DNA of 64,000 bases, taken from NCBI GenBank assembly GCA_000165345.1, contig CM000432.1:832001-896000 (forward strand), in the 5' to 3' direction. The position numbers were made by a program, and so were the translations under genes. Every line of letters starts with the position of its first letter. Within the stretch, counting starts at the first letter, position 1. This document shows positions 25,475 to 25,510 of this stretch, one piece after another. The notes under the pieces are model-generated. The model was not told the origin of the DNA, did no database searches, and worked only from the letters and a program-made list of their open reading frames with translations.

Positions 25475-25510
25475 TACGTGGCACGTGGCGCCGCACGTGT
25501 GGCGCCAGTT
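25475..25510. promoter_or_regulatory. GC-rich island carrying a duplicated CACGTG-GCGCC element
   Basis: The sequence is TACGTGGCACGTGGCGCCGCACGTGTGGCGCCAGTT. It has two E-box/G-box CACGTG cores fused to TGGCGCC, about 400 nt upstream of the 25901 gene. Confidence 0.4.

Follow-up and report, generated by a model that had tools for sequence, protein, structure and literature searches.

Locus and neighbouring genes

The stretch of DNA analysed here (64 kb, hereafter the window) belongs to Cryptosporidium parvum chromosome 4, is AT-rich (about 25-35% GC) and carries many long uninterrupted ORFs. The ORF at 25901..27496 was assigned to cgd4_3560 (CPHLJ_4g3560) by the 100% identity of its 531-aa product to the C. 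parvum protein, and a published cgd4_3560 qRT-PCR (qPCR) primer maps to 25958-25984. Orthologues of cgd4_3560 are confined to other Cryptosporidium species. The upstream ORF (21086-24775) is cgd4_3550 and encodes a multi-Kazal secreted protein; when cgd4_3560 and its neighbours were scanned against Pfam, no domain was found except the Kazal repeats of cgd4_3550. These gene identities place the GC-rich run studied here in the 1125-nt spacer between the same-strand genes cgd4_3550 and cgd4_3560. A full-text literature search gave no paper naming cgd4_3560 in its main text, and the promoter locus of this gene is without earlier individual description.

No tRNA was found in the window with ARAGORN, and Rfam searches gave 0 matches for the entire window at gathering thresholds and 0 matches for 25200-25900 at E <= 1. 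An RNA gene at the conserved block was dropped as a candidate, there being neither an Rfam match nor a tRNA. Elsewhere in the window, the long ORFs 44684-47632 (+) and 60706-63846 (+) have locally high GC (up to 54%) and are both overlapped by long spurious antisense ORFs; the translation of the ORF at 44684 contains extreme Ser/Gly/Pro/Thr/Arg low-complexity repeats (PSSTPSSTPS, GGASGGAS, SRSRSR).

The orthologous spacers of C. parvum and 10 others (C. hominis, C. tyzzeri, C. meleagridis, chipmunk genotype I, C. ubiquitum, C. canis, C. felis, C. xiaoi, C. bovis and a Logan assembly) were aligned, and counts out of 11 refer to these sequences. The features of the locus are listed below, with coordinates and, where assigned, strand.

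25448..25540, + strand: conserved footprint (~90 bp), read as a composite promoter block; sole conservation peak of the cgd4_3550-cgd4_3560 spacer
25451..25457: AATGCAT, distal TGCAT-type (AP2_1-like) element; ATGCAT (25452) at the same offset in 7/11
25464..25470: ACATGCA, proximal TGCAT-type (AP2_1-like) element; CATGCA (25465) kept in 8/11
25474..25481, + strand: TTACGTGG, conserved ACGT-core element; exact in 7/11
25482..25487: first CACGTG, lineage-specific palindrome; C. parvum and C. hominis only
25486..25493: E2F-type site 1, TGGCGCCg; core GGCGCC (25487-25492) kept in 9/11, GGCG invariant in 11/11
25494..25499: second CACGTG, within the variable 6-8 nt spacer between the E2F-type sites
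25500..25507: E2F-type site 2, TGGCGCCA, the exact published C. parvum octamer; GGCGCC kept in 9/11
25511..25522, + strand: AGGTATCCACAC, invariant 12-mer; identical in 11/11
25901..27496, + strand: cgd4_3560, 531-aa hypothetical protein; presumed regulated gene

Composition and layout of the GC-rich run

The run reads ttACGTGGCACGTGGCGCCGCACGTGTGGCGCCAg over 25474-25508. Its GC content is 69.4% over 36 nt (25475-25510), compared with 24.7% in the remainder of the 1125-nt spacer, and the earlier description of a ~70% GC run amid ~25% GC intergenic DNA is accurate. CACGTG is found at 25482-25487 and 25494-25499, and GGCGCC at 25487-25492 and 25501-25506. The earlier note had described two CACGTG palindromes, each fused to TGGCGCC, and this is borne out: the first CACGTG shares two bases with TGGCGCC (CACG-TG-GCGCC) and the second directly abuts it. 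Its placement of the run 400 nt upstream of the gene at 25901 is also correct, when the distance to the ATG (25901) is counted from the start of the second GGCGCC.

Expected motif counts were obtained from dinucleotide-preserving shuffles of the window. GGCGCC was observed 9 times (0.46 expected) and TGGCGCC 14 times (0.33 expected). CACGTG was observed 5 times (1.25 expected), with two of the five copies coming from the GC-rich run itself; the three copies outside the run, one of them in coding sequence, are unremarkable against an expectation of 1.25.

Cross-species conservation of the block

In a MAFFT alignment of the 1.1-kb spacer from seven species, conservation peaked solely at 25448-25540, where column identity was 0.75-0.96 against about 0.5 elsewhere. 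No conservation was found in this alignment between 25540 and the ATG. Across the sequences, the block lies between -221 and -557 relative to the ATG, and the DNA that separates the two is not conserved.

Within the block, both GGCGCC hexamers are kept in nine of the 11 sequences, at 12-14 nt from start to start and with 6-8 variable nt between them. C. bovis and C. xiaoi have retained the flanks and carry a single degenerate TGGCGGTAAAA instead of the GGCGCC pair. In the corresponding stretches of C. xiaoi (L006, 2630-2665) and C. bovis (L007, 2628-2663), a single ACGTGGCGGTAAAA replaces the pair, the flanking AGGTATCCACAC is untouched, and ACGTGGCGGTAAAA is one mismatch off the canonical E2F form GGCGGGAAA. 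The change to ACGTGGCGGTAAAA in these two species is a case of site turnover within a conserved promoter frame.

E2F-type sites

The octamer TGGCGCCA, with the core [C/G]GCGC[C/G], is the C. parvum E2F/DP-type motif (Bankier 2003; Oberstaller 2013, PMC3734150; PMC12246861). It is the top over-represented C. parvum upstream motif and precedes 161 of 200 co-expression clusters (PMC3734150, PMC4117751), is dominant in the open-chromatin peaks of sporozoite ATAC-seq (10.1101/2025.01.17.633476) and is found up to 100 bp upstream of C. parvum lncRNA starts, where 22.6% of the instances show it twice (PMC7840661). Within the apicomplexans, E2F/DP has been retained by Cryptosporidium only (PMC12246861), which has two E2F and two DP genes (10.1101/2025.01.17.633476, PMC12246861). 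A review states that functional validation is missing for most components (PMC12246861).

At the present locus, site 2 always starts 10-11 nt before the invariant 12-mer and 12-14 nt past the start of site 1. C. parvum and C. tyzzeri have TGGCGCCG at site 1; of the seven other sequences with both sites, six have TGGCGCCA and C. felis has AGGCGCCA. The T-run/A-run flanks of canonical 12-bp E2F sites are absent here and present elsewhere in the window, for example in atttGGCGCCaaaa at 34128. Most other promoters in the window carry single GGCGCC sites; the single sites are typically atttGGCGCCaaaa-like, with a start codon 145-400 nt downstream.

Across the window, 14 of the 15 [CG]GCGC[CG] sites fall outside the ORFs of at least 150 aa, which cover 67% of the window (P = 2e-6) and are more GC-rich than the rest of it. 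Pairs of [CG]GCGC[CG] within 20 nt were observed twice, compared with 0.17 expected (P about 0.01, window). The run carries the [C/G]GCGC[C/G] core, this core is over-represented in intergenic DNA, and its conservation in orthologous promoters, where spacer identity is about 50%, points to purifying selection. The E2F-like reading proposed earlier is supported at this level, by a published motif that is enriched, lies almost exclusively in intergenic DNA and has both copies conserved in 9/11 sequences.

The only [CG]GCGC[CG] inside a long ORF (40852..42600, ...NIGALEP...) is at 42295-42300; it reads ttGGCGCCc, with no A/T flank 3' of the core. A second intergenic GC island (18836-18883, up to 75% GC) is situated between the divergent ORFs 13840..18576(-) and 19624..20346(+). 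It contains a tight E2F-like pair, CGCGCC (18860) and GGCGCG (18875), 15 nt apart; CATG precedes each core, and GCATGC is nearby. At 44019, GGCGCC is followed by gcgtGCATGCGCATGCgtc. The ORF at 43199-43534 (-), in a GC-rich stretch without any ORF of at least 150 aa, encodes 111 aa that start with MGCSSSK (an N-terminal acylation-type motif) and end in an Ala/Pro-rich repetitive tail; it probably represents a genuine small gene that has the E2F site region at 44019 in its promoter as well.

CACGTG palindromes

The CACGTG hexamer is present in the run, but it is neither conserved in the orthologous promoters nor recurrent in the other promoters of the 64 kb. The first CACGTG corresponds to CATGTG in C. 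tyzzeri and chipmunk genotype I, and in C. meleagridis 8 nt are deleted at this position. The second CACGTG is present in C. parvum, C. hominis, C. tyzzeri and C. meleagridis only; C. canis has TACGTG, and four other species have unrelated sequence. ACGTGG occurs 5 times in the window (2.64 expected), which is no meaningful enrichment. The window has no further copy of the composite CACGTGGCGCC, its only match at 1 mismatch being CACTTGGCGCC at 3807, and the composite is missing from all of the roughly 20 other promoters of the 64-kb window. The earlier note had named absence from the other promoters as something that would refute the module: on this measure the composite fails, and its GGCGCC part passes.

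The published table of C. parvum transcription factors has no bHLH protein and lists three CCAAT-type bZIP proteins and one other (PMC3734150, Table 2). The 'G-box' of the Cryptosporidium literature is G.GGGG, not CACGTG, and no literature on CACGTG in Cryptosporidium regulation was found, the only hits being unrelated primer and CpG-oligonucleotide papers. The E-box/G-box half of the earlier reading is left unsupported, with neither CACGTG conserved, no enrichment beyond the run and no bHLH in the published table. To judge from the alignment, the CACGTG pair is a set of recent, species-specific by-products of the adjoining sequence.

Flanking elements

TGCAT (AP2_1) and CACACA are ApiAP2 motifs (PMC4117751). 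The TGCAT/ATGCA core is present upstream and conserved in 7-8 of the 11 sequences, as would be expected of ApiAP2 sites; C. xiaoi and C. bovis have AATGCAT near the position of the proximal element. The AP2_1 octamer TGCATGCA was observed 13 times in the window (0.71 expected), often in close pairs (37188/37197, 50645/50649, 54783/54853).

Between the proximal TGCAT-type element and the first palindrome is TTACGTGG, a conserved ACGT element outside both palindromes that the earlier note had overlooked. C. ubiquitum has the variant ACGTAG and the Logan isolate ACGTGT, and in C. bovis and C. xiaoi ACGTGG is directly beside GGCGG. No meaningful enrichment of TTACGTGG was found across the window.

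The 12-mer AGGTATCCACAC is identical even in C. bovis and C. xiaoi, whose protein is just 37% identical. It occurs once in the window, and no second copy was found there at up to 2 mismatches. The extended block TAGGTATCCACACAAATGTAAAAA (25510-25533) includes a CACACA AP2-type motif, and AGGTATCCACAC or the whole of TAGGTATCCACACAAATGTAAAAA may be a core promoter or transcription start region. Three nt past the 12-mer is an ATGTAA start-stop (25525-25530), which eight of the 11 sequences share and C. felis, C. xiaoi and C. bovis lack; given a transcript start upstream of 25525, this could be a start-stop uORF. It is conceivable, though doubtful, that the 12-mer, the packed E2F pair and TTACGTGG form an undescribed Cryptosporidium core-promoter/initiator element, or that the 12-mer is the site of a new factor working with E2F/DP. 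This suggestion comes from the 12-mer, which lies a constant 10-11 bp from the E2F pair and has persisted since the C. bovis/C. xiaoi lineage separated from that of C. parvum, with proteins that are now 37% identical.

Expression of cgd4_3560

The published cgd4_3560 mRNA level (relative units) is about 1e-8 at 2-6 h, 1e-7 to 1.8e-6 at 12-48 h and lower at 72 h, with a rise of at least 10-fold from 6 h to 12 h (Mauzy 2012 supplement). The reported peaks of the E2F/DP transcripts are at 2 h and 12 h (PMC12246861). The 12-h rise of cgd4_3560 is compatible with E2F activation. E2F alone cannot account for the profile, because the gene is near-silent at 2 h despite the reported high E2F/DP, and this silence means that other inputs must gate cgd4_3560. 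Candidates for these gating inputs are the AP2-type flanks, the ACGT element and the 12-mer. In the Oberstaller co-expression set, the locus belongs to expression cluster 121. A transcription start 486 nt before the ATG, taken from Logan contig L011, was rejected, since this contig breaks past the T10 run at 25401-25410.

Interpretation and alternatives

The GC-rich run is likely to be the centre of a ~90-bp, genus-conserved cgd4_3560 promoter block, built on tandem predicted E2F/DP sites, in which the palindromes are not selected. What was observed is the sequence, its enrichment, its intergenic bias and its conservation across species; from these we infer E2F/DP occupancy, side-by-side binding and a role for the 12-mer. 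The functional core would consist of TGGCGCCg (25486-25493) and TGGCGCCA (25500-25507), 14 bp apart, with one E2F-DP winged-helix heterodimer on each palindromic GGCGCC core. The spacing of 12-14 bp is about the footprint of one heterodimer, as in the crystal structure of E2F4-DP2 with DNA, and two dimers could therefore sit side by side.

Upstream of the pair, the arrangement would include the two TGCAT (ApiAP2-type) elements and the conserved TTACGTGG; downstream, at 10-11 bp, AGGTATCCACAC may serve as an AP2-type CACACA site, mark the region where transcription starts, or do both. That the 12-mer keeps a constant distance of 10-11 bp suggests that a defined assembly forms on the transcription start or close to it, and a variable 5' leader of 220-560 nt would then separate this start from the ATG. 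The first CACGTG would be a young T-to-C change of the C. parvum/C. hominis lineage beside the conserved ACGTGG, and the second would be the current filler of an unconstrained spacer between the E2F sites. With the block 400 nt from the ATG, it could serve another transcript.

The CACGTG palindromes, or the three ACGTG cores present within 25 nt, might instead be genuine targets of a factor that recognises ACGT, for example the single non-CCAAT bZIP, forming a composite with E2F. The published C. parvum table does hold one 'other' bZIP, the ACGTG core of TTACGTGG is conserved in most species, and ACGTG is directly beside GGCG in three lineages (C. parvum, C. meleagridis and C. bovis/C. xiaoi). 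The hexamers, however, lack conservation even within the closest relatives (CATGTG in C. tyzzeri), CACGTG and ACGTGG are not enriched beyond the locus, and the composite is missing from the other promoters of the window. Neither the published motif sets nor the AP2 binding-array text contains an ACGT-containing motif, and the C. parvum table is without a bHLH. We regard this explanation as unlikely.

Alternatively, the 1.1-kb spacer, which is unusually long, could harbour an unannotated transcript, either a lincRNA or a long leader containing a start-stop uORF, with the block as its promoter or 5' end. The E2F motifs reported up to 100 bp from lncRNA starts and the 33 lincRNAs reported in C. 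parvum (PMC7840661) would agree with this, as would the freely varying distance to the ATG (-221 to -557) and the ATGTAA that follows the 12-mer in 8/11 sequences. Yet there is no conservation from 25540 to the ATG and no Rfam match at E <= 1, and a long cgd4_3560 5' UTR starting near the 12-mer fits the same facts, which leaves an unannotated transcript quite improbable. Least credible, and rejected, is a DNA cruciform or RNA hairpin of the GGCGCC arms as the functional entity. GGCGCC-N8-GGCGCC is an 18/20 palindrome in C. parvum, and in C. hominis and C. meleagridis the palindrome is perfect over 22 nt. The predicted hairpin energy is -10 kcal/mol, but the fold (DNA) is no better than that of shuffled sequences (z = -0.92; 34 of 200 shuffles fold equally well or better). 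The palindromic spacer is not conserved, being lost in chipmunk genotype I, C. ubiquitum, the Logan isolate and C. felis; moreover, most other promoters use a single GGCGCC, and C. bovis and C. xiaoi are without the second arm.

As a conserved example of a known promoter motif, accompanied by incidental CACGTG, the finding is unexceptional. The E2F-type motif is already known as the commonest C. parvum promoter motif; modestly interesting is the invariant 12-mer beside it. Gene regulation in Cryptosporidium has been little validated by experiment. The block is compact, footprinted to ~90 bp and made of separable elements, and is thereby a promoter on which E2F/DP binding and reporter dissection can conveniently be tested. 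Natural controls are available in C. tyzzeri, with CATGTG for the first CACGTG, and in C. bovis and C. xiaoi, without the E2F pair.

Comparison with known systems

Tandem or inverted pairs of E2F sites are found in animal and viral promoters, such as those of adenovirus E2 early and E2F1. The cgd4_3560 promoter resembles these in having two close sites in one promoter, presumably for two dimers by analogy. In contrast to the animal and viral pairs, the spacing here drifts over 12-14 bp, and C. parvum is without a pRB homologue (PMC3734150).

With the E-box and the plant G-box/ABRE (CACGTG, PyACGTGGC; bHLH/bZIP) the run shares two CACGTG and two ACGTGGC in C. parvum; it differs from them in that these hexamers are neither conserved in orthologous promoters nor recurrent in the promoters of the window. 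The ApiAP2 motifs TGCAT (AP2_1) and CACACA / GCACAC (AP2_2) are matched by the conserved ATGCAT, CATGCA and CCACACA that flank the E2F pair (PMC4117751, PMC3734150), although AGGTATCCACAC is longer than one AP2 site and has CCACAC instead of the GCACAC of AP2_2.

The closest likeness is to the C. parvum E2F/DP upstream motif, with which the run shares the core hexamer, the exact octamer at site 2, a position in upstream non-coding DNA, the co-occurrence of TGCAT (AP2_1) and the presence of two copies, as reported for other promoters (PMC7840661). Unlike the typical C. parvum E2F motif, the copies at cgd4_3560 are 14 bp apart in a GC island, without T-run/A-run flanks, and nine sequences have kept the pair, whose distance to an invariant 12-mer is fixed.
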